Of a DNA stretch of 31,623 nt, positions 10,012 to 31,623 are shown one piece after another. Numbering within the stretch: position 1 is the first letter of the stretch; each line of letters opens with the position of its first letter. The notes below the pieces were generated by a model that was not told where the DNA came from, did not search any database, and was given only the letters and a program-made list of their open reading frames with translations. This DNA is from Clostridia bacterium. GTDB lineage: Bacteria; Bacillota; Clostridia; Christensenellales; Aristaeellaceae. The stretch covers positions 1-31,623 of the forward strand of contig JAKSQG010000002.1 in the NCBI GenBank assembly GCA_024404275.1, in the 5' to 3' direction. The position numbers and the translations under genes were made by a program.

Positions 10012-10596
10012 TTACAGCGCGGCACATTCGGCGGCCACCGCGGCTTCGCAGCTCTGCATGGCGCGAAGCGTGCGGTCCAGCAGTTCCTCCAGCGTCCAGC
10101 CCAGGATCTCGGCACCCTTGCTGATGACCTCGCGGGAGCAGCCGGCGGCAAAACGCTTGTCCTTGAACTTCTTTTTGAGACTGGAAAGCTCCATGTCCGT
10201 GCAGCTGCCGGAGGGGCGCATGCGGGCGGCGGCACCGATGAGACCGGTCAGTTCATCCGCGGCAAACAGCACCTTTTCCATCGTGTGCTCGGGGGCAATG
10301 TCACAGCACAGTCCCCAGCCGTGGGAGCAGATGGCATGCACCATCTCGGCAGAGCAGTTGATCTCCGCCAGCAGCTCGGGAGCCTTCTGACAGTGCTGCT
10401 CGGGCCAGCCCTCAAAATCGATATCGTGGAGCAGTCCGCAAAGGCTCCAGAAACCGACATCCTCGCCAAAGCCCAGTTCGTTGGCATACCAGCGCATGCA
10501 GCCTTCCACCGTCAGGGCATGCTGCAGGTGGAAGGGTTCCTTGTTGTATTTTTTGAGCAGCTCCAGCGCCTGTTCGCGGGTGATGACGGTATTCAT
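10012..10596 (-). CDS. HD/HDIG-domain metal-dependent phosphohydrolase
   Basis: The 194-aa ORF contains an HD motif (LLHDIDF) and further His residues (HAICSH). A GGAGG RBS lies upstream. The ATG overlaps the ftsY stop by 1 nt. Stop codon is TAA. Confidence 0.8.
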   Translation of the reverse strand: MNTVITREQALELLKKYNKEPFHLQHALTVEGCMRWYANELGFGEDVGFWSLCGLLHDIDFEGWPEQHCQKAPELLAEINCSAEMVHAICSHGWGLCCDIAPEHTMEKVLFAADELTGLIGAAARMRPSGSCTDMELSSLKKKFKDKRFAAGCSREVISKGAEILGWTLEELLDRTLRAMQSCEAAVAAECAAL

Positions 10597-11522
10597 CAGT
10601 TGCTGTCCTCCGTTTTTTCATCCTCGCCGAAAAGTGCCCTGACGAACTGATTGGCGTCAAAGGCCTGCAGGTCGTCAATGCCCTCACCCACGCCGATGTA
10701 CCACACGGGCACGTTCAGCTCGCGGCGGATGGCAATGGCCACGCCGCCCTTGGCGGTGCCGTCCAGCTTGGTCAGGATCAGACCGTTGATTTCAACGGCT
10801 TCCTTGAACATCTTGGCCTGGTTGATGCCGTTCTGACCGGTGGTGGCGTCCAGAATCAGCATGCAGCGCACGGTGGCCTCGCTGAAGTCCTTATCGATGA
10901 TGCGGCGCATCTTCGACAGCTCGTCCATCAGGTTCTTTTTGTTGTGCAGGCGGCCGGCGGTGTCGATGATGAGCAGGTCGGCCTTGCGGGCCTTGGCAGC
11001 CTGCACGGCGTCATACACCACGGCGGCGGGGTCGCTGCCGGGCTGATGCTTGATGAGCGGCACATTGGCTCTTTCGGCCCACACCGCCAGCTGGTCATCG
11101 GCGGCGGCACGGAAAGTATCGCCCGCAGCCAGGATGACGCTGCGGCCGATCTATTGAAATCTCAGCGCCAGCTTGCCCACCGTGGTGGTCTTGCCCACGC
11201 CGTTGACGCCCACCACAAACATGACCATGGGCCAGTGCAGGGCGGGACGGGGAATGTTCATTTCCTCGGTCAGCAGCTCCTTGAACATTTCACGTGCCGT
11301 GGCGGCATCCTTGACCTTCTTGTCCTCGATGCGGCTGCGCAGCTCGTCAATGATCTCGGTGCTGGCTTTGACGCCCACGTCGCTGAGCAGCAGGATATCG
11401 GTCAGCTCCTCATAAAAATCATCATCGATGACACGGGTGTTTTCGACCAGCTCGTCCACCTTGTCGGAAATGTTGGATTTGGACTTGAACAGTCCCTGCT
11501 TCAGTTTTTGAAAAAAGCCCAT
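10596..11522 (-). CDS. ftsY: Signal recognition particle receptor FtsY containing one in-frame TAG
   Basis: ORFs 11151..11522 and 10596..11084 are in the same frame, and the sequence between them is open except for TAG 11151-11153. The GTPase motifs [10 protein letters not shown], DTAGR and TKLDG are all present. The joined length is 308 codons. AAGGAG RBS; stop codon is TGA. Confidence 0.93.
11151..11153 (-). other. In-frame TAG codon read as sense (ftsY)
   Basis: ...[48 protein letters not shown]... Confidence 0.85.
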
Positions 11523-11535
11523 ATCGTGTATCTCC

Positions 11536-14500
11536 TTACTGATAATTTTCCAGATTGACGCTTACCATGCGGCTGACGCCCTTTTCCTGCATGGCGACGC
11601 CGTACAGGGAGTCGCAGCGTTCCATGGTGCCCTTGCGGTGGGTGACGACCACAAACTGTGTGCCCTTGGCAAACTCCACCAGATAATCGGCAAAATAGCC
11701 GATGTTGGCTTCGTCCAGAGCCGCTTCGATCTCATCCAGAATGCAGAAGGGCGTGGGGCGCACCTTCAGCATGGCAAACAGGATGGCAATGGCGGTCAGC
11801 GCGCGCTCGCCGCCGGAGAGCAGGCTCAGCAGCTGCAGCTTCTTTCCCGGGGGCTGCGCCACCACCTCGATGCCGCAGGTCAGCGGCTCGTTCGGGTCCT
11901 CCAGCTTGAGCTCCGCCTGTCCGCCGCCAAAGAGGCGTACAAACGTTTCCTTGAAATAGCCGTTCAGACGGTCAAACTCGACCACAAACTGCTTTTCCAT
12001 CTGACCCATCAGCCGCTTGATGAGGCTGCGCAGGTCGGCTTCCGCCTTGGTCATGTCCTCCTGCTGGCGGGTCATGTCGTCAAAGCGTTCCTTGGTCTGG
12101 GCGTATTCTTCCACGGCACGCGTGTTGATGGGGCCCAGCGCGCGGATCTCCCTTTGCAGACCGGCGGCTTCCTTTTCACCCGCGGTCAGGGAGAAGGCAT
12201 CTGCCGGCAGGCGGTATTCCTCGGCGATGGCGAGCGTGGCCTCGTAGGTGTTCCACATGTGCTCGGTCAGCGTATTCAGCTCGTTTTCCGCACGGGCACT
12301 TTGCAGTTCGGTGCGGTGAAGCTGTTCGCCGTCGGCGTTGTATTTTTCGTGCAGGCGCTCGCTTTCGGCGACCAGCTCACGCTGCTGCGCCTGCTTTTCG
12401 GAACGTGTCTTTTCCAGTGCCGCGGTGTCCTCTTCCAGTTGACGCAGGGCGGCGTTCTGTTCGGCTGCCGCCTCGGTCAGCTGCCGCAGCAGCTCGGTGC
12501 CGTCCTCCAGCATCTTGCGCTGTTCGGTCAGCTTGTTTTCGGCTTCGGCACGCTCCTGACGCAGGTCGTTTTCCTCCTGCTCGCGGCGTTCCTTGTCACG
12601 GCGCAGGGTATCCAGCTTGTGCTGCAGGTCGGCCAGTTCCAGCCTTCTGCGCTCCAGACCGCCGCGCAGCAGATCGGCTTTTTCGCGGGCGGCACGCAGT
12701 TCATCCTGCAGCTGCTCGGTCTTCTGCTCCAGCGCTTCGCGGTCCACCGCAGCGCTTTCGGTGCCCTCGGTCAGGCTCTTGAGGTCAGCCCGCAGCTCTT
12801 CCAGGCTGTCCACCAGCTGTGTGATGGCAGCGCGCGTTTTGTTCAGCTGCTGCTCGGCGCTTTCCAACTCGGCAGAGGTGTTGAACACATGCTCCTGCTC
12901 ACGGGCAACGGCGATCTCCTGCTGATGCATGGCCTCGGCAGCCTCGGCACTCAGGCGGCGGGCTTCCCGCTGCTTGTCCTGCAGGCGCACGGCTTCTTCG
13001 GTCAGATGGTTGAACAGCTTTTCATCTTCCTGCAGCCGCGCCGTCAGTTCCTTGATCTCGCGTTCACGGGAAAGGAAGTTGCTGGTCTTGCCCTTCATGG
13101 AGCCGCCCGTCATGGAGCCGCCCGAGTGCATGACCTGACCGTCCAGCGTGACCAGACGGAAGGAATAGCGTCCCGCGCGCATGATGGGCAGGGCGGCATT
13201 CAGGTCGGATGCGATCACGGTGCGCCCCAGAAGGTTTTCCATCACGGGGCGGTATTTCTGATCATAGCCGATCAGCTCGCTCGCCACGCCCAGGCAGCCG
13301 GGCATCGACAGCACACGGCGCTCCTCGTTGTTCAAACTGTAGGGGCGCACGGTGTTGAGGGGCAAAAAGGTGGCACGGCCGCCGTCGGTGCGCTTCAGGT
13401 ATTCGATCAAACGCTTGGCGGTCACATCGGTGCCGGTAATGATGTTCTGCAGGGCGCCGCCCAGCACGGAATCAACGGCGGTCTCCAGTTCTTTGGGAAC
13501 CTCGATCAGCTGGGCGACCACGCCGCACACATCGGGGTCATTATGCCCGGCCTGCAGGGCCCGGCGGACGGCGTTGGCATAGCCCTCCATGTCACGGGCC
13601 ATTTCGCTCAACACGTGCAGGCGGCTGCGGGCGGACTGCATATCCAGGTTCAGCTTCTGCCTGCGGTCGTTCTGCGTGTTCATTTCATCGCCGAGTGAGC
13701 GGGCTTCGGCTTCCAGACGGCGGGCTTCGCCGCGGCAGGCGGTCAGGGTCTCGTCAGCCTCGCGCTGCAATTCCAGCGCGGCGTCATACTGCTGCCGCAG
13801 TTCCGCCTGACGGCTCACGCGTTCGCTTTCATTGGAACGCAGCTGCTCCAGATAGTTTTCCATCTGGGCGCACATCGTTTCCTTCTGGGTGCGGCTGTTG
13901 CGCACATCGCTCAGACGGTTGACAGCGGTCAAAATATCGGCTTTATGATCATTGAGCCGCTCCTCGGCTTCTTCGGCGGCTTGTTCGGCGGCGGCGGCCT
14001 CTTCCTCGGCGGCCGTCAGCGCTTCAGCGGCAGCGGTCAACTCCTCCTGCATCAGGGAGCCGCTGCCTTCGCCTTCCTCGGCAAGACGGCGCAGCACCTC
14101 AAGGCGGCTGTCCGCGGCGGCGACCTGCGCGGTCAGGCGTTCTTCCTCGGCCTTCAGCGCTTCACCGCGGGCTTCGGCTCGCTCCCGCGCCGTTTCGGTC
14201 TTATGGGCTTCCTCGGAGCTCAGACGGATGTCCGCCCGGTACTGACTGATATCATCCTCCATGCGGCTGATGATGTCGTCCAGCGCGGTACGCTCATTGC
14301 TGTTTTCATGCAGGCGCGCTTCGGTCTGCAGCTGCGTGTCGTGCAGCAGCTCCAGCGTTTCCTTCAGTTCCCTGATGCGCTCGGAAAGCTTATCCTGCCG
14401 CAGCAGGAAGATGTTCATTTCCAGCGTCTTGAGCCGCTCGGCCAGCTCCTGATATTTCAGCGCTGACTGCGCCTGCTCGTGCAGCGGCTAAATGCGGCTG

Positions 14501-15096
14501 CCCAGCTCCTGCAAAAGGTCGTTGACGCGGCTTAAATTGTCCAGCGTGCGGGACAGCTTGTGCTCGGCGTCTTCCTTGCGCACGCGGAAGGTGCTGATGC
14601 CGGCGGCCTCCTCAAAGACCTCGCGGCGGTCCTCACTCTTGTTGGAAAGAATATCGTCGATACGGCCCTGACCGATGTTGCTGTAGCCGTCCTTGCCGAT
14701 GCCGGTATCATAAAACAGCTCACGGATGTCCTTGAGCCTGCAGGCTTTTTTGTTGAGATAATATTCGCTGTCGCCGTTGCGGTACAACCGGCGGGTCACG
14801 GCCACCTCGGCAAAGTTGGTGCGCAGGGCGCCGTCCTCGTTTTCAAAGGTCAGCGTCACCTCGGCAAAGGTCAGCTTCTTGCGCTTCTCCGTGCCGTTGA
14901 AGATGATGTCCTGCATGCTGCCGCCGCGCAGCTCGCGGGGGTTCTGCTCGCCCAGCACCCATTTGACGGCGTCGCCGATGTTGCTTTTGCCCGAACCGTT
15001 GGGGCCCACAATGCCCGTGATGCCGCCGTTGAACAGCACTTCGGTGCGCTCGGCAAAGGACTTGAAGCCGTAGATCTCCAGTTTTTTCAGCTTCAT
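11536..15096 (-). CDS. smc: Chromosome segregation protein SMC containing one in-frame TAG
   Basis: ORFs 14488..15096 (head with Walker A GPNGSGKSN) and 11536..14418 (coiled coil, hinge, LSGGERAL signature, Walker B FCILDEIEAALD) are in the same frame. The intervening 14419-14487 is open, so the only interruption is TAG 14488-14490. The joined length is 1186 codons. Stop codon is TAA. Confidence 0.95.
14488..14490 (-). other. In-frame TAG codon read as sense (smc)
   Basis: ...RVNDLLQELGSRI-TAG-PLHEQAQSALKYQELAERLKTLEMNIFLL... Confidence 0.85.
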
Positions 15097-16090: not shown

Positions 16091-17131
16091 TTAACCGTTA
16101 TTCGCGGGGGAAGTCTCATTTGCCTGCTGCTTGGCCAGGGTCTCCTTGACGGCGGCTTCGATGCTGCCGACCACGTTGGAGTTGATCATGTTGACGCACT
16201 GACGGATGGCGCAGGCCACGGCGTGCGCGTTGGAGGAGCCGTGTGCCTTGACCACAGCACCCTTGACGCCCAGCAGCGGGGCGCCGCCTACTTCGGCATA
16301 GTCCATGCGCTTCTTGACGCGCCTGAACGCGGGCTTGGCCAGCAGCGCGCCGATCTTGGAGCGGGTATCGGCCATCATTTCATCCTTGATGATGTGCAGC
16401 AGCGTGCCGGAGACGCCTTCCATGAACTTGAGCACCACGTTGCCGGCAAAACCGTCGGTCACCAGCACATCGGCCATGTCGGCGGTCACGTCGCGGCCTT
16501 CGATGTTGCCCACAAAGTTGATGGGGGCTTCTTCCAGCAGCTTATACGCTTCCTTGGTCAGCTTGCAGCCCTTTTCGGCTTCGGCGCCATTGTTGAGCAG
16601 GCCGACGCGGGGGTTTTTGACGCCGCGGACGCAGCGCATATAAGCGTCGCCCATGATGCCGAACTGCTGCAGATACTGGGGCAGGCAGTCGACGTTGGCA
16701 CCGCAGTCGATGAGCAGGAAAAAGTCCTTGCCGTTGGGCAGCATGGGGGCAAGGGCGGGGCGCTCAATGCCGTCGATGCGGCCCAGCACAAAGATGCCCG
16801 CGGCCAGCGTGGCGCCCGTGGAGCCGGCGGACACAAAGCCGTCCACCTCGTGCTCGCGCAGGGCCTTCATGCCCTTCGCCTGGGCGCTGTCACGCTTGCG
16901 GCGCACCGCCATGACGGGCGCTTCGCAGTTGGTGATCACCTCAGTGGTGTGTTCGATCACCAGCCGGTCCATGATGTCATCACAGCCGGTCAGCAGGGGC
17001 TTGATGGCAGCCTCGTCGCCGGACAGGGTAATCTTGAGGTCTTTGTCATTGCGCAGCGCCTCAATGGCGCCGTTAACGGTACAGCCGGGGGCGTTGTCGC
17101 CGCCCATGGCGTCCAGATAAATGTGAATCAT
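16091..17131 (-). CDS. plsX: Phosphate acyltransferase PlsX
   Basis: ORF 16091..17323 is trimmed to ATG 17131 (MIHIYLDAMGGDNAP, a typical PlsX N-terminus). PlsX-like sequence runs throughout. Stop codon is TAA. Confidence 0.92.
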   Translation of the reverse strand: MIHIYLDAMGGDNAPGCTVNGAIEALRNDKDLKITLSGDEAAIKPLLTGCDDIMDRLVIEHTTEVITNCEAPVMAVRRKRDSAQAKGMKALREHEVDGFVSAGSTGATLAAGIFVLGRIDGIERPALAPMLPNGKDFFLLIDCGANVDCLPQYLQQFGIMGDAYMRCVRGVKNPRVGLLNNGAEAEKGCKLTKEAYKLLEEAPINFVGNIEGRDVTADMADVLVTDGFAGNVVLKFMEGVSGTLLHIIKDEMMADTRSKIGALLAKPAFRRVKKRMDYAEVGGAPLLGVKGAVVKAHGSSNAHAVACAIRQCVNMINSNVVGSIEAAVKETLAKQQANETSPANNG

Positions 17132-17167
17132 GTGTTTCACCGCCTTGAAAATGCTTGAACGTTTGCA

Positions 17168-17196
17168 ATTATAGCATAGCTGAAAACCGTTTGCAA
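17168..17196 (-). promoter_or_regulatory. Sigma-A-type promoter for plsX-acpP
   Basis: On the minus strand, TTGCAA (17196-17191), a 17-nt spacer and TGcTATAAT (-10 at 17173-17168). Confidence 0.6.
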
Positions 17197-17220
17197 CCGC
17201 TGCCCGTTTTTGGCCACAAA

Positions 17221-17880
17221 TCAATAAAACAGCAGGTTTTTCAACGCTTCCGGGGTGTTTACGAAGCAAGCGTCGGGGCAGTCCTGCCGTACCAGCTGGG
17301 CCAGCTCGTCCTCGTGTCCCCACATGGCCACGGCGATGTCGCAGCCCGCGGCACGGGCCATGGTGTAGCCGGGCTTCAGGTCATCGACCACCAGAATGTC
17401 CTTGAGCTCATAGCCGAAGCTGTCCATGATCCTGTGAATGGGCGCGGGGGAGGGCTTCTGGTTTTCGGCGCCCACCTCCCAGCCCAGCGTCAGGTCGGGC
17501 ACGGGCAGCCCTGCGGCTTCATAATCGCGCACAATGTAGCGCGCGTAGGAATGCGATACCACGCACACCCTGCCGCCCTCGGCCTTCTGACGGCGGATGA
17601 TCTCCGGCATGCCGTCATAAAAGGGCGGCACGCGGTCGGATACAAAACGGAACCAGTTTTCCTATTGAAACTTCATTTCCTCGTCCGTCATGTGCAATTG
17701 ACCGCGGCAGAATTCGTCAAAGGTCAGCTCATACCACTGCCGCTGATATACACTGCGGGGAATGTTCAGCCCCGGGCGCAGCTTGCTCATGGTGTCAAGA
17801 AAAGAAAGATAATGGATGGTGTCGGTGGAGCGCACCGCGGTGTCATCGTGGTCCAGCACCAGGCAGGGATAACGCGTCAT
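17221..17880 (-). CDS. HAD-superfamily hydrolase containing one in-frame TAG
   Basis: ORFs 17662..17880 (motif I LDHDDT) and 17221..17631 (KPSPAPI and DD motifs) are in the same frame. The gap is open except for TAG 17662-17664. The joined length is 219 codons. Stop codon is TGA. Confidence 0.85.
17662..17664 (-). other. In-frame TAG codon read as sense (HAD hydrolase)
   Basis: ...LHMTDEEMKFQ-TAG-ENWFRFVSDRVPPFYDGMPEII... Confidence 0.8.
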
Positions 17881-17902: not shown

Positions 17903-18020
17903 AATACCGTAAAGATCGGGCTGGCCCGCGGCACATCACAACAAATGCTTACTGCTGCTTCCTTCCGGACCTGACAGGGTTCACACCGTGCAATCGCACG
18001 GGGCCCGACCTTTACGGCAC
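17903..18020 (-). ncRNA. ffs: Small (4.5S-type) signal recognition particle RNA
   Basis: The minus-strand RNA contains the universal SRP helix-8 core CUGUCAGGUCC-GGAA-GGAAGCAGCAG. A closing helix pairs CCGUAAAGGUCGGGC with GCCCGAUCUUUACGG, followed by a UAUUUUUA tail. Confidence 0.88.
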
Positions 18021-18129: not shown

Positions 18130-18243
18130 ATGAATCTTCAGGGCGGGGTGCGATTCCCCACCGGCGGTATAGCCCGCGAGCCTCAAAAAGGTTGATCCGG
18201 TTGAATTCCGGAGCCGACAGTACAGTCTGGATGGAAGAAGTTT
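18130..18243 (+). promoter_or_regulatory. FMN riboswitch (RFN element) aptamer
   Basis: cttcagggcggggtgcgattccccaccggcggtatagcccgcgagcc...ccggttgaattccggagccgacagtacagtctggatggaagaag matches the conserved RFN core (AGGGCxGGGUG.AAUUCCC.ACCGGCGGU...GCCCGCGAGC...GCCGACAGU.AAGUCUGGAUG.GAGAAG). Confidence 0.92.
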
Positions 18244-18278
18244 CAAGCATTGCTTTTATTGCGCCGCATGGCGTGTCT

Positions 18279-18310
18279 TCCTCCCTGAAGTGATTCGGGG
18301 AGGTTTTTAT
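18279..18310 (+). terminator. Expression-platform terminator of the FMN riboswitch
   Basis: The stem tCCTCCC / GGGGAGG is followed by TTTTTATT. The left arm (cttcctcc) is also complementary to the 3' strand of P1 (ggaagaag), which would allow an antiterminator. Confidence 0.75.
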
Positions 18311-18334
18311 TATGCCGGAAGGAGGGAACACACC

Positions 18335-19201
18335 GTGAAGAAAACAATGGCGCAAAGGCTGAAGCCCTATCTGTTTCTGATGCCCATGCTGGTGTTTGCC
18401 GCGGGTTTTGTGTACTATCCCTTCTTCAAGACCTTCCTGTACAGCTTTTCCCGCGTCAATGCCCGCGGCGATATCCTCGGCTTTGTGGGGCTGCAGAATT
18501 TCACCTATCTGTTCAGCCGCAGGGAATTTTCCGCCGCCCTTGGCAATACGCTCAGGCTGGCGGTCATCAACGTGCCCGTCACGGTCGCCCTGACCATGTT
18601 CCTGGCGCTGCTGTGCACCAGAAAAAGGGGCATCAGTGCAGCGGCGGAGACCATGTTTGCCCTGCCGATGGCCATTGCCATGTCGGCGGTGGCGCTCATC
18701 TTCAAGGTGCTGCTCAATCCCACGGTCGGCTATGTCAACCACCTGTTCGGTCTGACGGTCGGCTGGTACCGCGATAAAAACACGGCGCTTTCGGGCATCA
18801 TCCTGCTTACGGTGTGGATGGGCATCGGCTTCAATTTTCTGCTGTTCCTGTCCGCCTTCCGGGGGGTGCCCGATCAGCTGATCGAATCCGCCCGGCTGGA
18901 CGGAGCGGGTGGGGCGGCGGTGTTCTTTTTCATCCGTTTTCCGCTGATCACGCCCACGCTTCTGTATGTGGTATGCACCAACATGGTGCAGGCACTGATG
19001 ACCAGCGGACCCGTCATGATCCTGACGCAGGGCGGCCCCTCCCGCTCCACCACCACGCTCATCTATATGATGTACACCTCGGGCTACGGCTCATCGAACT
19101 ATTCTCTGGCAGCCTGTGTGGTGCTGGTCACCTTCGCCCTGACGCTGGTCTGCACACTGCTGGCCTTCGCGGCGGAAAGAAAGAAGGTGCATTACCAGTG
19201 A
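18335..19201 (+). CDS. Carbohydrate-type (CUT1) ABC transporter permease, MalF/UgpA-like
   Basis: ORF 18290..19201 is trimmed to GTG 18335, which lies 8 nt after GGAGGG (ATG 18347 is the alternative start). It has six TM segments and the EAA loop ESARLDGAG. Stop codon is TGA. Confidence 0.88.
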   Translation: MKKTMAQRLKPYLFLMPMLVFAAGFVYYPFFKTFLYSFSRVNARGDILGFVGLQNFTYLFSRREFSAALGNTLRLAVINVPVTVALTMFLALLCTRKRGISAAAETMFALPMAIAMSAVALIFKVLLNPTVGYVNHLFGLTVGWYRDKNTALSGIILLTVWMGIGFNFLLFLSAFRGVPDQLIESARLDGAGGAAVFFFIRFPLITPTLLYVVCTNMVQALMTSGPVMILTQGGPSRSTTTLIYMMYTSGYGSSNYSLAACVVLVTFALTLVCTLLAFAAERKKVHYQ

Positions 19202-20022
19202 AAAGACGAATGGTTCGCCTTCTGACCGATGCCCTGACGCTGGCGCTGGGCTTCGTGGTGGTTTTTCCCATCCTGTACGGATTGATGGGGGCATTCAAAT
19301 CCCCCGCGGAGTTTGCCGCCCAGCCGCCCACCGTATTGCCGCGTTCCTTCTCCTACACCGATAACTTCGCCTTCGTGCTGCGTACGGTGCCGCTGCTGCG
19401 TTACTTTTTCAACTCCCTGACGGTGGCGGTGCTCATCAGCACGGTGCGCCTGCTGGCGGCGCTGCTGGCGGCCTACGCGTTTGTGTACTTTGAATTCCCC
19501 GGCAGAGGGCTGCTGTTCATGCTGGTGCTTGCCACCATGATGCTGCCGGGCGACACCATGACGGTCACCAATTATCAGACGGTTTCGCGTCTTGGGCTGC
19601 TCAACACCTATCTTGGCATGAGCATCACCTCCTTCGTGGGCGCGTCGCAGATGTTCATGCTGCGGCAGAATTTCAAGACCATGCCCACGGCCATCCGTGA
19701 GGCCGCTATTCTGGATGGCTGCGGCGACCTTCGGTATCTGTTCTTCATCCTGACGCCCCTGTCCCGCCCCGTGCTGGTGACGCTGTTTGTGCAAAGCTTC
19801 ATTGGCGCGTGGAACACCTATCTATGGCCGCTGATGGTCACCAGCCATGATGAAATGCGCACCGTGCAGGTGGGCATCACCATGCTGACCTCGGTGGAGG
19901 GCACCAATTACGAAACGGTGCTGGCGGGCGTCATGCTCTCGCTCATCCCTGCGCTGTTTGTATTCCTTTTCCTGCGCCGCGGCATCTCCAAAGCCATGAC
20001 CGCGGGCTCCCTGGTGGGCTGA
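19198..20022 (+). CDS. Carbohydrate-type (CUT1) ABC transporter permease, MalG/UgpE-like
   Basis: The frame of ORF 18814..20022 is trimmed to GTG 19198, which overlaps the upstream TGA (GTGA); ATG 19210 is the alternative start. It carries the EAA loop EAAILDGCG. Stop codon is TGA. Confidence 0.85.
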   Translation: MKRRMVRLLTDALTLALGFVVVFPILYGLMGAFKSPAEFAAQPPTVLPRSFSYTDNFAFVLRTVPLLRYFFNSLTVAVLISTVRLLAALLAAYAFVYFEFPGRGLLFMLVLATMMLPGDTMTVTNYQTVSRLGLLNTYLGMSITSFVGASQMFMLRQNFKTMPTAIREAAILDGCGDLRYLFFILTPLSRPVLVTLFVQSFIGAWNTYLWPLMVTSHDEMRTVQVGITMLTSVEGTNYETVLAGVMLSLIPALFVFLFLRRGISKAMTAGSLVG

Positions 20023-20074
20023 TGCTGTTATCCCCGGGGCCGCGTCCCCGATAAAAATAAGGAGGAATCGTATC

Positions 20075-21352
20075 ATGAAAAAACTTTCCGCGCTGTTTGT
20101 GATCCTTACCCTTGTTTTCAGCCTTTCCGCCGGAGTGCTGGCGGAGACCCCTGTCACCCGCATCGTTTTCTGGCACTCCATGAATGAAGAGGCCGGCGTG
20201 CTGCTCGAAAAGTATGTGAAGGATTTCAATGACACCGTCGGCGCTCAGCTGGGCATCGAGGCCGAAGCCGTCTATCAGGGCTCCTACGCGCAGGCGACCC
20301 AGAAGCTCAACGCCATCCTGCAGGCGGGCAATTTTGCCGAGCTGCCCGATGTGATGCAGATGGACGCGACCGGCAAGGTGGCATATTTCACCTCCGGCAA
20401 GGCCTACACCGTGGACGACCTGCTGCGGGATAAGCCCGATACCGACGTTTCCGGTCTGCTGGGCGCGGCGATGGGCAACTGGAACTACACCGGCGTGCAG
20501 CTGGGTGTGCCCTTTGCCACCTCCACCACCGTGACCTATTATAACAAGACGGTGCTGGGCGAAGCCGCTCCCGAGACCTTTGCCGATATCAGCGCCGTGA
20601 CCGCTCCCGAAGGCACCGTGGTGTATGCCACCGTGCCCAACACCACCACCCTGGCCAACTGGCTGGGTCAGCTGGGCAGCTATGTGGTCAACAACAAGAA
20701 TGGCAGCGAAGGCAGTGCCGATGAGCTGGCCTGCATCGAAAACGGCGCTCTGGAGACCTTCCTGACCGAATGGAAGGCGCTGTATCAGAGCGGCGCGCTG
20801 CAGAACTACGCCGGCTCCACCGATGAGTTCGTGGCGGGCAAGCTGCTCATCATGACCTCTTCCTCTTCCAAGGTCACCTCCCTGCTGGCTTCCATCGGCG
20901 GCAGCTTTGAACTGGGCGTGTCCGTTTATCCCAAGGTGAACGCGGATGCCGCCTTCGGCGCCACCGTTTCCGGCAGCTGTCTGGTGATGTTTGATACCGG
21001 CAAGCAGGAAGCCGCCTGGGCGCTGGAAAACTACCTGACCTCTGCCGATGTGCAGGCGGACTTTGCCGTGGGCACCGGCTACATCCCCTCCAACAGCGGC
21101 GCGCTGGAGACCGAAGCCTGGAAGCAGCTGGTCGCCGCTCAGCCCGCTTATAACGTGGGTCTGGAGCAGCTGATGGCCACCCCCGCCGATATGCGCTCTG
21201 TCACCGTGGGCCCCTCCGCCGATTTCTACTATGCCATTCAGGATTGCGTCAGCGAGATGCTGGACAGCGACCTCACCCCTGAAGAGACCGTCGAAATGAT
21301 GGAGGATGAGCTGGGCGGACTGCTTACCCAGTACGCCATGGCCAATCCCTGA
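20075..21352 (+). CDS. Extracellular solute-binding protein (family 1) of the ABC transporter
   Basis: The ORF is 425 aa with an AAGGAGG RBS and an N-terminal signal peptide (MKKLSALFVILTLVFSLSAGVLA-ETP) that has no lipobox Cys. Stop codon is TGA. Confidence 0.88.
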   Translation: MKKLSALFVILTLVFSLSAGVLAETPVTRIVFWHSMNEEAGVLLEKYVKDFNDTVGAQLGIEAEAVYQGSYAQATQKLNAILQAGNFAELPDVMQMDATGKVAYFTSGKAYTVDDLLRDKPDTDVSGLLGAAMGNWNYTGVQLGVPFATSTTVTYYNKTVLGEAAPETFADISAVTAPEGTVVYATVPNTTTLANWLGQLGSYVVNNKNGSEGSADELACIENGALETFLTEWKALYQSGALQNYAGSTDEFVAGKLLIMTSSSSKVTSLLASIGGSFELGVSVYPKVNADAAFGATVSGSCLVMFDTGKQEAAWALENYLTSADVQADFAVGTGYIPSNSGALETEAWKQLVAAQPAYNVGLEQLMATPADMRSVTVGPSADFYYAIQDCVSEMLDSDLTPEETVEMMEDELGGLLTQYAMANP

Positions 21353-26198: not shown

Positions 26199-27460
<1,262 letters not shown>

Positions 27461-27464
<4 letters not shown>

Positions 27465-28012: not shown

Positions 28013-28044
28013 AAACGTCCGTGCGACAGGCACGGGCGTTTTAT
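28011..28044. terminator. Bidirectional intrinsic terminator between convergent genes
   Basis: AAAAA-CGTCCGTGC-gacag-GCACGGGCG-TTTTAT. An A-run and a T-run flank a 9-bp stem with one G.U pair. Confidence 0.8.
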
Positions 28045-28051
28045 GATGCGG

Positions 28052-28954
28052 TCAGAACAGGTCGAGCATGCTGTCCAGATAGATCTCTTCCCGCACGGTG
28101 AGTTGGTATTCGGGACGGACCAGATAGTACAAAAGCATTTCCAGCACAACGGCGCTGCCCAGACCGCGGCCTTCGATCTTGAACTGGTCAAAGCCCAACG
28201 GCAGATAGGTATCGCGGATGTCTTCGTTGCTGATGAAAGCGGGGGAGGCCATAGCCCGGGAGAAGCGGTAGCCGCCGCCGGCGGTGTAGGGGCAGAGATG
28301 CTCGGCCGATTCGCCCAGACTTTTGCGGCTGACCGTTTCATAGCAGGCTTTGCGCTCCGCACAGCGGATGTCGCAGCACTCGTTGACCAGGAACTCGACT
28401 TTGTCCCTCTGCGGCTGTGTGAGGGTCTGCCAGCGGTCAAACGCTTTGTTCAGCCGGAAATCGGGCACCACATAAGCAAATTCGGGGCGGTTCAGCTCCT
28501 TGACGCAGTCGTCAAAACCCGTCAGCACCTTGGTGGTGGAGGAGACAAAATACATCGAGGGATAGCGCTGCCGCAGCTCCTGCAGCAGAAGATCGGAGTG
28601 CACGATGACGCCGCTCGGAACGCGGCTTTTTTCAAACAGTCTGCACAGGGCGTGACAGCGGCGGTCGGAAAGATGCTCCTGTTTGAGCAGGGAGTTGGAA
28701 AAGGTCAATCTGGCGGAGATGCCGTATTCTTCTGTCAGGGCAAGCACCTTTTCAGGCACTTCTTCGCCAAAGCCCACACGCCCGCCGCCCCACAGGCAGT
28801 CTGCCGGAGCCCCGTAGAGGGAGGCGATGGCGCACTTTTCATAAAAGAATTCCCGGTGTTCTTTGTACAGCTTCAAAAAGACGCTGTACAGGTCATAAAA
28901 CTCAAACAGACCCGGCAGATGAAAACAGGCCGTCTGCTTTGGTGCTTTTGTCAT
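28052..28954 (-). CDS. Hypothetical protein, tentatively a peptidase-U32-like TIM barrel
   Basis: The ORF is 300 aa with an AGGGAGG RBS. The FKIEGRG motif is reminiscent of the U32 family (recalled, not verified). Stop codon is TGA. Confidence 0.7.
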   Translation of the reverse strand: MTKAPKQTACFHLPGLFEFYDLYSVFLKLYKEHREFFYEKCAIASLYGAPADCLWGGGRVGFGEEVPEKVLALTEEYGISARLTFSNSLLKQEHLSDRRCHALCRLFEKSRVPSGVIVHSDLLLQELRQRYPSMYFVSSTTKVLTGFDDCVKELNRPEFAYVVPDFRLNKAFDRWQTLTQPQRDKVEFLVNECCDIRCAERKACYETVSRKSLGESAEHLCPYTAGGGYRFSRAMASPAFISNEDIRDTYLPLGFDQFKIEGRGLGSAVVLEMLLYYLVRPEYQLTVREEIYLDSMLDLF

Positions 28955-29095
28955 CCGATTGCCGCCTCCCTTTGCCTGTCTATCGTATCATTCCGCCGGC
29001 GGATGCGCAAGCGGAACGGCGATAAAAAACCGTCTCCGGTGCTCAGGGTGTGTAAATCCTGCTGCGGGGTATAGCCATTTGACCGGGGAATGTGT

Positions 29096-29101: not shown

Positions 29102-29157
29102 AAGCTGCAAACCGATTTTTTTCTGCCGCAAGGCTTTTTGGATAAAGGAGATTCAGT

Positions 29158-31623
29158 ATGGCCAATTCCCGCAGCCGCCGCAGTTCCCGCAGCGTGGGAC
29201 GCTTTGATTACAGGGCGCTGACACTGATCGTGTTTTCTTTTGTGATGCTTCTGTTCATCATCATCGGTCCCAAGACCCCTGTCCACCGCGCACTCAACGC
29301 GACGGGTGATGGGGAAGGCTCCTGGGAAGGGCTGGTCATCAGCGAAGTGATGAGCGATAACGAATCCGCCCTGCCCGATGAGAACGGCACCTTCTGCGAC
29401 TGGCTGGAGATCTGGAACAGCAGCGACGAGGTGATCAGCCTTGAAAATGTTTCACTGTCCAACCGTTCCGACCGCAGCAAATTCATCTTTCCCGCTCAGG
29501 TGCTGGCGCCCGGTGAAAAGGTGATCGTTTACTGCGACAGCGTCAACCGCAACACCGCGGGCGAGGCGTACCACGCCAAGTTCAAGCTGTCCAGTCTTGG
29601 CTGCACGGTGTTCATGTTTGACCCGAGCGGCAAGCAGATCGATTCCGTCACCGTGCCCACGCTCAACACCAACGAATCCTACAGCCGCATGGAGGATGGC
29701 CGCTTTGAGGTGACCGACCTGTACAGCCCCGGCTACCCCAACACCGAGGATGGTCACATCCTGTATCTGGCCAACTACACCATTGAGGCCGATACCCTGT
29801 ACATCAACGAAGTCATGGCCGCTCCCCGCAGCGGACTTCGTGACGAGGACGGCGAATTGTCCGACTGGCTGGAATTGTACAACGCCAGCAATGAGCGCAT
29901 CTATCTGCGCAACTATGCCCTGTCCAATAACGGTGCCAAGCTGCTCAAGTGGTTCTTCCCCGATGACGCCTACATTGAGCCCGGTCAGTACTATGTGGTG
30001 TTCTGCTCCGGCAAGGACCGGGACGGCGCCGAGACGGGCTATCCCCACACCAATTTCCGCCTGTCCGCCGAGAAGGAGACCATCTACCTGTCCAACCGTC
30101 TGGGCAGCCTTGTGGATGTGATGACATGGGACAACCTGTCGGTCGACTGCAGCTACGGCCGTGTGCCCGGCAGCAACGCCCGTCAGGTGTTCACCCTGGC
30201 TACCCCCGGCGCCCCCAACAACAGCGAGGGCGCCGCGCTGGCGGATAAGTACCTGCGCGCCATCAACAAGACGGGCATCTACATCACCGAGGTGATGAGC
30301 TCCAACGATGTCATCAAGGCGGCTTCCGACTCCCCCAACAAGGACTGGGTCGAATTGTACAACAGCACCACCGCCGCGGTCGATGTCAGCGGCTGGGGGC
30401 TTTCCGACAACATCAACTGGCCCCGCAAGTGGCAGTTTCCCGAGGGCACGGTGCTGTGGCCCGGTCAGTACAAGATCGTCATGCTGGACGGCGCCGATGG
30501 CGTCTCCGCGGGCGGTACGTTGCATACCTCCTTTCGTCTGCTGCGCGCGGGCGGCGAAGTGATCACCCTTTCCGATGCCACAGGCTATGTGCTGGATAAG
30601 ATCGCGCTGCCGCTGATTCCCACCGATTACAGCTATGGCCGCACATTGGGGTTGGGCTCTTTTTTTTATTATGATACCCCCACACCCGGCGGCGCCAACG
30701 GCACGGGCTTTGGCGGCTTCACCGAGGCCCCCGCGTTTATGACCCGCGGCGGTCTGTTCTCCTCCAACGTAGAGGTGGAGATCGTGGTGCCCGCGGGAAC
30801 CACCGTGCGCTACACTACCGACGGCACCGTGCCCACGGTCAATAACGGCACCGTCTACACCGGTCCCTTTACCATTACCGGCACCACCGCTGTGCGCGCC
30901 CGTGCCTTTGTGGGCGGCGACCGCAAACCCTCCGACACCATCACAGCGACGTACGTGCTCAAGACCTATTACTCCCTGCCTGTGGTGTGCCTCGTGACCG
31001 ACCCCGACAATCTGTGGAACGAATCCACCGGCATTTTTGCCGCGGGCGCGGGCATTGACCTGGCCAGCTACAGCTACATTCCCTTCAAGCACCCCTCGCC
31101 CGTGTACCGCATTCAGAAGGAAGCAGGCGTCAAGGTCAGCTCCTACGCCGAGATGTACCGTCAGGGCGAGACCGACCCCGTGTTCAGTCAGGGCGTCGAA
31201 ATCGGCATCATCGGTCAGTACTCACTGGATATGCCGCAAAAATCCATCAAGATCCACGCAAAGGCGCGCTACGGCAGCAAGTATATCAACGGCGCCGTGT
31301 TTGAGGACAGACCCTTTACCCAGTACCGCGCGCTGGTGCTGCGCAACAGCGGCAACGACTGCGTGTGGACGCGCATGGTGGACGGCGTGCAGAGCCGCCT
31401 CGCCGACAAGATCGGCACCACTGTGGTGCATCAGGCGTGGCAGCCCGTCATCGTTTACATCAACGGTCAGTACTGGGGGCACTACAACCTGCGTGAGCGC
31501 GTGGGCGAATACATGGTCGCCCAGCACGAGGGCGTGCCGCTCAATGAAGCCAAGTCCATCGACGTGCTGGAGAGCAACGGTACCTCCAAATCGCAGATCA
31601 ACAACGGTTCCAACGAGGAGTGG
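29158..31623 (+). CDS. Membrane-anchored CotH-family protein with three lamin-tail domains (LTD), 3'-truncated by the window edge
   Basis: The frame is open from ATG 29158 (AAAGGAG RBS) to the window end, 822 codons. It is absent from the ORF track because it has no stop inside the window. It starts with an Arg/Ser-rich N-terminus and a TM segment (LTLIVFSFVMLLFIIIG). Three LTD-like repeats follow (SEVM...DWLEIWN, NEVM...DWLELYN, TEVM...DWVELYN). The C-terminal region is CotH-like (LRNSGND...YINGQYWGHYNLRER). Confidence 0.85.
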   Translation, partial: MANSRSRRSSRSVGRFDYRALTLIVFSFVMLLFIIIGPKTPVHRALNATGDGEGSWEGLVISEVMSDNESALPDENGTFCDWLEIWNSSDEVISLENVSLSNRSDRSKFIFPAQVLAPGEKVIVYCDSVNRNTAGEAYHAKFKLSSLGCTVFMFDPSGKQIDSVTVPTLNTNESYSRMEDGRFEVTDLYSPGYPNTEDGHILYLANYTIEADTLYINEVMAAPRSGLRDEDGELSDWLELYNASNERIYLRNYALSNNGAKLLKWFFPDDAYIEPGQYYVVFCSGKDRDGAETGYPHTNFRLSAEKETIYLSNRLGSLVDVMTWDNLSVDCSYGRVPGSNARQVFTLATPGAPNNSEGAALADKYLRAINKTGIYITEVMSSNDVIKAASDSPNKDWVELYNSTTAAVDVSGWGLSDNINWPRKWQFPEGTVLWPGQYKIVMLDGADGVSAGGTLHTSFRLLRAGGEVITLSDATGYVLDKIALPLIPTDYSYGRTLGLGSFFYYDTPTPGGANGTGFGGFTEAPAFMTRGGLFSSNVEVEIVVPAGTTVRYTTDGTVPTVNNGTVYTGPFTITGTTAVRARAFVGGDRKPSDTITATYVLKTYYSLPVVCLVTDPDNLWNESTGIFAAGAGIDLASYSYIPFKHPSPVYRIQKEAGVKVSSYAEMYRQGETDPVFSQGVEIGIIGQYSLDMPQKSIKIHAKARYGSKYINGAVFEDRPFTQYRALVLRNSGNDCVWTRMVDGVQSRLADKIGTTVVHQAWQPVIVYINGQYWGHYNLRERVGEYMVAQHEGVPLNEAKSIDVLESNGTSKSQINNGSNEEW
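29331..30660 (+). repeat. Three tandem protein-level repeats (lamin-tail domains, period about 158 codons)
   Basis: Repeat starts lie near 29331, 29798 and 30278. Each has the x-I-x-EVM...(D/K)DW(L/V)E(I/L)(W/Y)N(S/A)(S/T) pattern followed by ...SF/NFRLS.... Confidence 0.7.

Follow-up and report, generated by a model that had tools for sequence, protein, structure and literature searches.

According to surveys and reviews, all known reassignments of a stop codon in bacteria involve UGA, and our own literature search found no report of a bacterial reassignment of UAG, whether to Glu or to any other amino acid. Outside the bacterial chromosome, UAG-recoded gut phages encode suppressor tRNA(CUA) genes (Borges et al. 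preprint), and peritrich ciliates (table 30) and Blastocrithidia (table 31) read UAR as Glu through tRNA-Glu with a matching anticodon (PMC12153298). The engineered Escherichia coli C321.deltaA and later recoded strains had TAG removed and release factor 1 (RF1) deleted (PMC11903333). Here, we describe a stretch of 31,623 nucleotides from Clostridia bacterium (Christensenellales; Aristaeellaceae; assembly GCA_024404275.1, contig JAKSQG010000002.1, positions 1 to 31,623), referred to as the window throughout, in which ftsY, the gene for the bacterial signal recognition particle (SRP) receptor, contains an in-frame TAG. Judging from the sequences of this gene and of four others that share the trait, we estimate at roughly 0.85 the probability that this uncultured Clostridia lineage from the gut translates UAG as Glu, a change in the genetic code that is not known to have been reported for any bacterium.

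The proposed code would share features with each of the described systems, while matching none of them. With the UGA codes (UGA-to-Trp, table 4, and UGA-to-Gly, table 25, in Mycoplasmatales, insect endosymbionts, Gracilibacteria/Absconditabacteria and some Eggerthellaceae) it would have in common the chromosome-wide capture of a stop codon, the expected mechanism (a cognate tRNA together with loss of the matching release factor) and the fragmentation of genes by standard-code gene callers. The components differ, being UAG, RF1 and Glu rather than UGA and release factor 2 (RF2), and most genomes with UGA codes are AT-rich or reduced, whereas the present one is about 60% G+C and not reduced over ~50 kb. 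Gut phages that read UAG as Gln (crAss-like, Lak and others; table 15-like) also use UAG as a sense codon and share the gut/rumen habitat, but these are phage genomes in standard-code hosts, while here the codon is found in chromosomal housekeeping genes (ftsY, smc and murA, which adjoin leuS, rnc, plsX and the SRP RNA gene) and its meaning would be Glu. The same reading of a stop as glutamate is known from the UAR-to-Glu codes, although these belong to eukaryotes in which UAA and UAG change together via eRF1; a change of UAG alone fits the bacterial division of labor between RF1 and RF2. In the archaeal UAG-to-pyrrolysine "Pyl code" the same codon is involved and TAG is rarely or never a terminator, yet that code requires pylTSBCD and inserts a lysine derivative, in contrast to the Glu-specific sites described below. 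Finally, the logic of the recoded E. coli strains, in which a TAG that is (nearly) unused as a stop makes RF1 dispensable and leaves UAG free for a tRNA, would apply here as well; those strains are synthetic, whereas this case would be natural and would have started from a family with about 2.5% TAG gene ends.

The ftsY gene and its in-frame TAG

Read through the TAG, ftsY spans 10596 to 11522 on the minus strand (ATG at 11522, TGA at 10596-10598; 309 codons) and encodes 308 aa, as supported by open reading frames (ORFs), Pfam hits and structure matches. The TAG is codon 124 (11151-11153, minus strand, appearing as "cta" on the plus strand). As the earlier note on this DNA had stated, it separates the G1 P-loop (GVNGVGKTT, aa 105-113; 11184-11210, minus strand) from the later GTPase motifs, the nearest of which, DTFRAAA (aa 135-141; 11100-11120, minus strand), lies between the TAG and the first possible restart codon. 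The FtsY motif order is kept, with DTAGR (aa 187-191), TKLD (aa 251-254) and GVGEG (motif GxGE, aa 277-281) following further downstream. The earliest canonical start past the TAG is a GTG at codon 147; a separately started C-terminal piece would therefore be without a conserved segment of 22 residues, and we agree with the note that neither half would be workable alone. That the two halves form one gene is borne out by the read-through protein, searched with X at the TAG: the Pfam SRP54 match covers residues 99-298 in one stretch across the TAG (6.9e-76), SRP54_N is found in the same polypeptide as this GTPase domain (1.3e-11), and solved FtsY structures match from end to end (1e-87). Compared with known FtsY, we find the same N domain, the same SRP54-type GTPase with G1-G5 and DTFRAAA, the same smc-ftsY operon and an SRP RNA gene nearby; the protein itself is no different, and only the spelling of codon 124 is unusual.

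The neighborhood of ftsY is compact, with smc, ftsY and the following HD-like gene closely coupled (10594-10598 and 11522-11538). A GGAG lies 9 nt 5' of the ftsY ATG, immediately past the TAA of smc, and the TGA of ftsY shares bases with the start codon of the gene that follows (TGATG); an exact-protein look-up with this HD-domain neighbor gave no match, and one with an ABC ATPase led only to an entry that has no DNA. The gene for the bacterial small SRP RNA, which belongs to the partner pathway of FtsY, is intact (Rfam RF00169, 76 bits against a gathering score of 40; 17911-18010, minus strand) and is located 6 kb from ftsY, between a HAD-family hydrolase gene and a riboflavin-type transporter operon.

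The earlier note had given a Gln in E. coli FtsY at the column aligned to codon 124, which our alignment reproduces, and had taken the column to be variable. Among the relatives of this lineage it is not: codon 124 is Glu in 13 of 13 related species (GAG in 10, GAA in 3), with the surrounding motif RFQ-E-IGRSV otherwise identical.

For comparisons within the lineage, the TAG trait was seen in the window, in L001-L010, in L027 and in L011/L030, the GTDB species-representative metagenome-assembled genome (MAG) GCA_045599485.1, which is roughly 88-97% identical to the window per gene. All 13 independent contigs of the lineage carry the ftsY TAG, as does the species representative; the contigs stem from at least 7 sequencing projects, and the ENA, Logan and NCBI assemblies that hold them share 93-99% identity with the window. 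The 123-aa N-terminal FtsY fragment that ends at the TAG is recorded in 10 other ENA/Logan contigs from different runs, which are 98-99.4% identical to the window, all have the TAG and show synonymous differences around it. A sense codon at 11151-11153, which the note had considered, is thus not what the independent assemblies read, and the TAG is genuine.

The note had also considered decay of this ftsY copy, of which there is no sign. Between the window and the species representative (L011), the part upstream of the TAG differs by 8 synonymous changes and 1 nonsynonymous change (ratio of nonsynonymous to synonymous divergence, pN/pS, 0.04), and the part downstream by 27 synonymous and 4 nonsynonymous changes (pN/pS 0.05); against strain L001, the downstream part shows 7 synonymous differences and no nonsynonymous ones. 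The part of smc downstream of its TAG behaves in the same way (window versus L011: 160 synonymous and 35 nonsynonymous differences, pN/pS 0.07), and with pN/pS values of 0.01-0.07 on either side of the TAGs, both sides are under purifying selection.

In-frame TAGs in other genes and the use of TAG as a stop

While the genuine TAG and the intact gene of the ftsY-centered reading stand, its view of a single-gene oddity at a Gln position does not, given 7 further TAGs in the window and informative sites that are all Glu. The phenomenon is a lineage-wide change in the meaning of UAG and not a feature of ftsY. We chose reading frames by homology and with a codon-usage model; a plain filter on the G+C content of the three codon positions (in real genes, GC1 about 0.62, GC2 about 0.43 and GC3 about 0.76) passed antisense frames. 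In the window, 5 genes together contain 8 in-frame TAGs, namely 1 in ftsY, 1 in smc, 3 in murA, 2 in a SpeE-like methyltransferase gene and 1 in the HAD hydrolase gene, and all 5 genes carry the coding signature of the genome. Matches to Pfam and PDB are unbroken across the TAGs, and no in-frame TAA, in-frame TGA or frameshift occurs among 8,819 codons. With the other strains included, the lineage has 10 unique TAG sites in these 5 genes; comparators are available for 9, and at each of the 9 the residue in the closest relative is Glu.

The smc gene (11536-15096, minus strand) encodes 1186 aa followed by TAA, with one TAG at codon 203 (14488-14490, minus strand). This codon is GAG in strains L001 and L011, and L001 has an uninterrupted 1186-aa gene call; in relatives, the column holds E in 8, D in 5, G in 2 and A in 1. 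A second smc site, codon 217, is a TAG private to L011, with GAG in the window and in L001 and with E in 11 and D in 2 of 13 more distant relatives. The SpeE-like S-adenosylmethionine-dependent methyltransferase gene (4374-5279, minus strand; 301 aa plus TAA, ATG at 5279 preceded by GGAGGA) has two TAGs, both of which are GAG in L011. Codon 12 (5244-5246, minus strand) falls in a variable column with E as the commonest residue, and codon 169 (4773-4775, minus strand) in the motif PWMS.CPSE at a position that is Glu in 120 of 120 homologs. At codon 7 of the same gene the situation is reversed, with TAG in L011 and GAA in the window. In the HAD-family hydrolase gene (17221-17880, minus strand; 219 aa plus TGA), the TAG at codon 73 (CAA TAG GAA; 17662-17664, minus strand) is shared with L011 and is spanned by the Pfam HAD_2 match (residues 10-184).

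The murA gene (26199-27464, plus strand; 421 aa plus TGA) contains three TAGs, and its read-through product matches Pfam EPSP_synthase over residues 9-408 (2.8e-88) as well as solved MurA structures (1e-118). Codon 327 (27177-27179, plus strand) is Glu in 120 of 120 homologs and GAG in the 98.5%-identical strain L027. Codons 360 (27276-27278, plus strand) and 414 (27438-27440, plus strand) are TAG in L027 as well; the closest full-length homolog (P0001) has E at codon 360, and at codon 414, a variable column (D 54, N 23, E 16), most of the closest homologs, including the closest full-length one, have E. Public annotation splits several of these genes, giving ftsY as 123 plus 156-162 aa and smc as 216 plus 960 aa (L001, L030), and of the HAD gene NCBI annotates only the piece past the TAG (17221-17610; 129 aa, P0121, "hypothetical protein MJ136_00265").

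Beyond the lineage the trait disappears. In L012-L026, which comprise one Christensenellales MAG and 14 related species represented by MAGs from rumen and gut (SMC identity about 65-70%), no credible in-frame TAG was found, and these relatives use TAG as a stop in 2 of 79 gene ends, for example in smc of L015. The TAG trait is therefore phylogenetically coherent, being shared by the clade and absent from its sisters, and within the clade TAGs persist across strains and two sub-lineages. Where strains are polymorphic, at 6 sites, the alternatives are always TAG versus GAG or GAA.

All 24 credible window genes end in TGA (15) or TAA (9). TAG ends none of them and none of 16 further genuine calls in L030; at the relatives' rate, only about 1 TAG end would be expected among all of these anyway. 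In L030, only the N-terminal fragments of smc and ftsY "end" in TAG. The family as a whole had almost abandoned TAG as a terminator, which is a precondition for codon capture. Stop preference differs between the window and relatives L012-L026 (TAA 55, TGA 22, TAG 2), with 9 TAA and 7 TGA in L030; the shift of the window to TGA would fit reliance on RF2 only, but may just follow G+C content. Two ORFs were dropped from the gene set: a plus-strand ORF at 28043-29074, which would end in TAG, is antisense to a real minus-strand gene by the codon-usage test, and a plus-strand ORF at 33-536 is probably antisense to a truncated DUF3877 gene.

Meaning of TAG and competing explanations

For the identity of the amino acid, we compared the codons that exchange with TAG over 5,875 aligned codons between the window and L011. 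There are 4 GAG<->TAG differences, plus one GAA<->TAG difference, where the neutral rate of four-fold degenerate G<->T changes predicts about 11.6-14.5; new GAG-to-TAG changes gain acceptance at about one third of the rate under neutrality. Exchanges with any other candidate codon are absent: CAG<->TAG is found 0 times, whereas a Gln meaning of TAG would predict 20.5 (Poisson P about 1e-9), AAG<->TAG 0 times against 15.3, TAC and TAT<->TAG 0 times against more than 10, and TGG<->TAG 0 times against 4.4. Glu is the sole meaning of TAG with which these exchange data agree; TAG accounts for about 1.2% of Glu codons. On this sequence evidence, the TAGs sit in constrained essential genes and arise from Glu codons only, including positions of invariant Glu.

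The appearance of a TAG is coupled to a second change directly upstream. At 6 of 7 sites with comparators, the base 5' of TAG has changed synonymously from G or C to A or T (P about 4e-4, even allowing a probability of 0.2 per site). In ftsY, all 13 relatives have CAG GAG where all 13 focal contigs have CAA TAG (CAA at 11154-11156, minus strand), and the same CAG GAG to CAA TAG change is seen at smc codon 217. Codon 203 of smc shows ATC GAG to ATT TAG, and the methyltransferase gene shows GCG GAG to GCA TAG at codon 12 and TCC GAG to TCT TAG at codon 169 (both L011 versus window) as well as TCC GAA to TCA TAG at codon 7. The lone exception is murA codon 327 (ATC TAG), the youngest site. Counted over unique TAG sites, 7 of 10 have A or T at position -1, compared with 25% before GAG (p=0.004); the codons concerned lie at 11154-11156, 14491-14493, 4776-4778, 5247-5249 and 17665-17667 of the window and at 10037-10039 and 19222-19224 of L011. 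All 24 Gln-Glu pairs with GAG or GAA use CAG for the Gln, and CAA instead precedes TAG; CAA is otherwise rare (30 CAA versus 257 CAG). Avoidance of CTAG could account for the C-to-W cases only. The pattern at -1 suggests compensatory selection on the decoding context, which would imply that ribosomes do translate these TAGs and that their decoding is still sensitive to the surroundings, as expected for an incompletely optimized or partly ambiguous codon. Such sensitivity may reflect residual competition with termination, or a tRNA that is ill-adapted to a codon starting with U.

On the 3' side, ATC follows TAG in 4 of 8 cases, compared with 26 of 348 after GAG (p=0.002; TAGATC at 11148-11153, 4770-4775, 5241-5246 and 27438-27443). 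Since TAGATC contains a GATC site, selection on the 3' context (A at +4) and a mutational or methylation effect are both possible. The 75 nt past the 8 TAGs show no shared RNA structure and no element resembling a selenocysteine or pyrrolysine insertion sequence (SECIS, PYLIS), with a mean minimum free energy of -25.0 compared with -22.6 ± 5.3 for 241 GAG controls. Individually, two of these segments form unusually stable folds, those of ftsY (11076-11150; -38.1 kcal/mol) and murA codon 360 (27279-27353; -36.7 kcal/mol), and the other six are ordinary.

Several observations weigh against decoding of UAG as Glu, or against a clean form of it. The analysis covered only ~50 kb of the lineage's genome, and an ARAGORN scan of the window and of all focal-lineage loci detected no tRNA. 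A search of metagenome and viral sequences for a tRNA-Glu-like anticodon arm with CTA gave one match, which lies in a coding region and is due to chance (L029 7278-7298 / L031 4830-4850, a 43,973-nt phage contig of 42% G+C in a JGI metagenome and in IMG/VR). The absence of TAG stops is weak evidence by itself, since the relatives hardly use TAG either. HAD codon 73 lies in a variable and uninformative column, where the nearest homologs have N, L or D, and the column of murA codon 360 is variable, too. Finally, the below-neutral acceptance of GAG-to-TAG changes and the need for a favorable context mean that UAG may be decoded inefficiently or ambiguously instead of being cleanly reassigned. Regarding the remaining components, an Rfam scan of the window found no tRNA, prfA (encoding RF1) and pyl genes are not within the window, and in the loci of the relatives ARAGORN found two tRNA-Arg(ACG) and one tmRNA and nothing else.

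The strongest competitor is a variant of the preferred reading, in which UAG is an ambiguous intermediate: a Glu-inserting amber suppressor tRNA would coexist with a functional RF1, UAG would be both stop and Glu, and only contexts favoring suppression would be tolerated. Acceptance of GAG-to-TAG changes at a third of the neutral rate, strong selection for A or T at -1 with enrichment of ATC at +1, and the low share of TAG among Glu codons would all be explained in this way. Yet the essential murA needs three read-throughs, so that efficient decoding is required, no gene with a TAG terminator was seen, and a poorly adapted tRNA would give context sensitivity even without RF1; we regard this variant as possible, but distinctly the less probable form. 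Leaky read-through by near-cognate tRNAs, without a dedicated tRNA (for instance after loss of RF1) and with mixed residues inserted, would share the context dependence, as CAA-UAG and A or T at -1 resemble known leaky-stop contexts, and would agree with the lack of a tRNA(CUA) in the ~50 kb. It is nevertheless improbable: mixed insertion is not tolerable at an invariant Glu of the essential MurA, three TAGs in murA demand high efficiency, and unspecific reading would let TAG arise from CAG, AAG, TAY and TGG, none of which is seen.

A reading as Gln by a supE-type tRNA-Gln(CUA), as in TAG-recoded gut phages, was hinted at by the note's comparison with E. coli and B. subtilis. It has in its favor that phages and many eukaryotes with a reassigned UAG usually read it as Gln, that the column aligned to ftsY codon 124 holds Gln in E. 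coli and that replacement of E by Q is often tolerated on protein surfaces. We consider it just as improbable as leaky read-through, given the missing CAG<->TAG exchanges (0 against 20.5), the origin of 9 of 9 informative sites from Glu codons, the two sites that are Glu in 120 of 120 homologs with zero Gln, and the Glu that all 13 relatives have at the ftsY column. A genome-wide UAG-to-pyrrolysine code on the same codon exists in archaea, and pyl genes occur in some Clostridia; a code of this kind is nonetheless very improbable here, because the TAG sites match Glu exclusively, including invariant Glu, AAG<->TAG exchanges are missing (0 against 15.3), and the window has neither pyl genes nor a shared RNA structure downstream of the TAGs. 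Least credible of all, to the point of being negligible, are pseudogenes or errors of sequencing or assembly. Standard annotation does split the genes into fragments, but the same TAG recurs in 13 independent contigs, pN/pS is 0.01-0.07 on both sides, the lesions are TAG only and never TAA, TGA or indels, and they affect essential genes (ftsY, smc and murA) at sites that are all Glu sites.

Returning to UAG as a Glu codon, UAG has very probably lost its role as a stop codon in this lineage, either wholly or in part. We think it likely, though slightly less so than the decoding itself, that this is a natural bacterial code with UAG = Glu and that no cellular prokaryote was known before to have given UAG to a standard amino acid; the code would be at an early stage in which TAG makes up about 1% of Glu codons, gains are segregating among strains, and each gain is then followed by a compensatory A or T at the preceding base. 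Under this model, ftsY, smc, murA, the methyltransferase gene and the HAD gene would be normal genes of full length, apart from a few GAG codons that have turned into TAG. The decoding tRNA would have a CUA anticodon and be charged by glutamyl-tRNA synthetase; in the simplest case it would be a copy of tRNA-Glu whose anticodon has mutated. RF1 would be lost or weakened. RF2 reads UAA and UGA, so loss of RF1 would free UAG only, which fits the absence of in-frame TAA. The change is young, in view of the share of TAG among Glu codons (about 1.2%), of sisters at about 65-70% SMC identity that still end genes in TAG, and of the below-neutral rate of GAG-to-TAG change.

If true, bacterial decoding of UAG as Glu would extend the list of genetic code tables by one, and would demonstrate that a genome of about 60% G+C, not visibly reduced over ~50 kb, can change its code. 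Codon capture and an ambiguous intermediate would become directly observable in a living population, and a young and polymorphic change offers a rare natural system for codon repopulation and context selection. A natural Glu-charging amber suppressor pair would also be of interest for genetic-code engineering. On the practical side, standard-code gene calling fragments essential genes of this lineage, and thereby distorts annotation, pseudogene counts and estimates of MAG quality.

Other features of the window

An FMN (flavin mononucleotide) riboswitch (RF00050, 116.8 bits; 18130-18246, plus strand) precedes the genes for two ABC permeases and a solute-binding protein (18290-21352), which probably form a riboflavin-regulated transporter. 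For plsX (ORF 16091-17323, minus strand), the probable start is well downstream of the GTG at 17323, as the Pfam domain begins at residue 67 and the 5' extension contains TGA codons in L011. Downstream of murA, a large secreted-type protein is encoded at 29146-31623 on the plus strand and runs off the contig end; its domains comprise three lamin-tail domains, a chitobiase C-terminal domain, an Fn3-associated domain and a CotH kinase domain, and in the relative L028 a CotH gene also neighbors murA.

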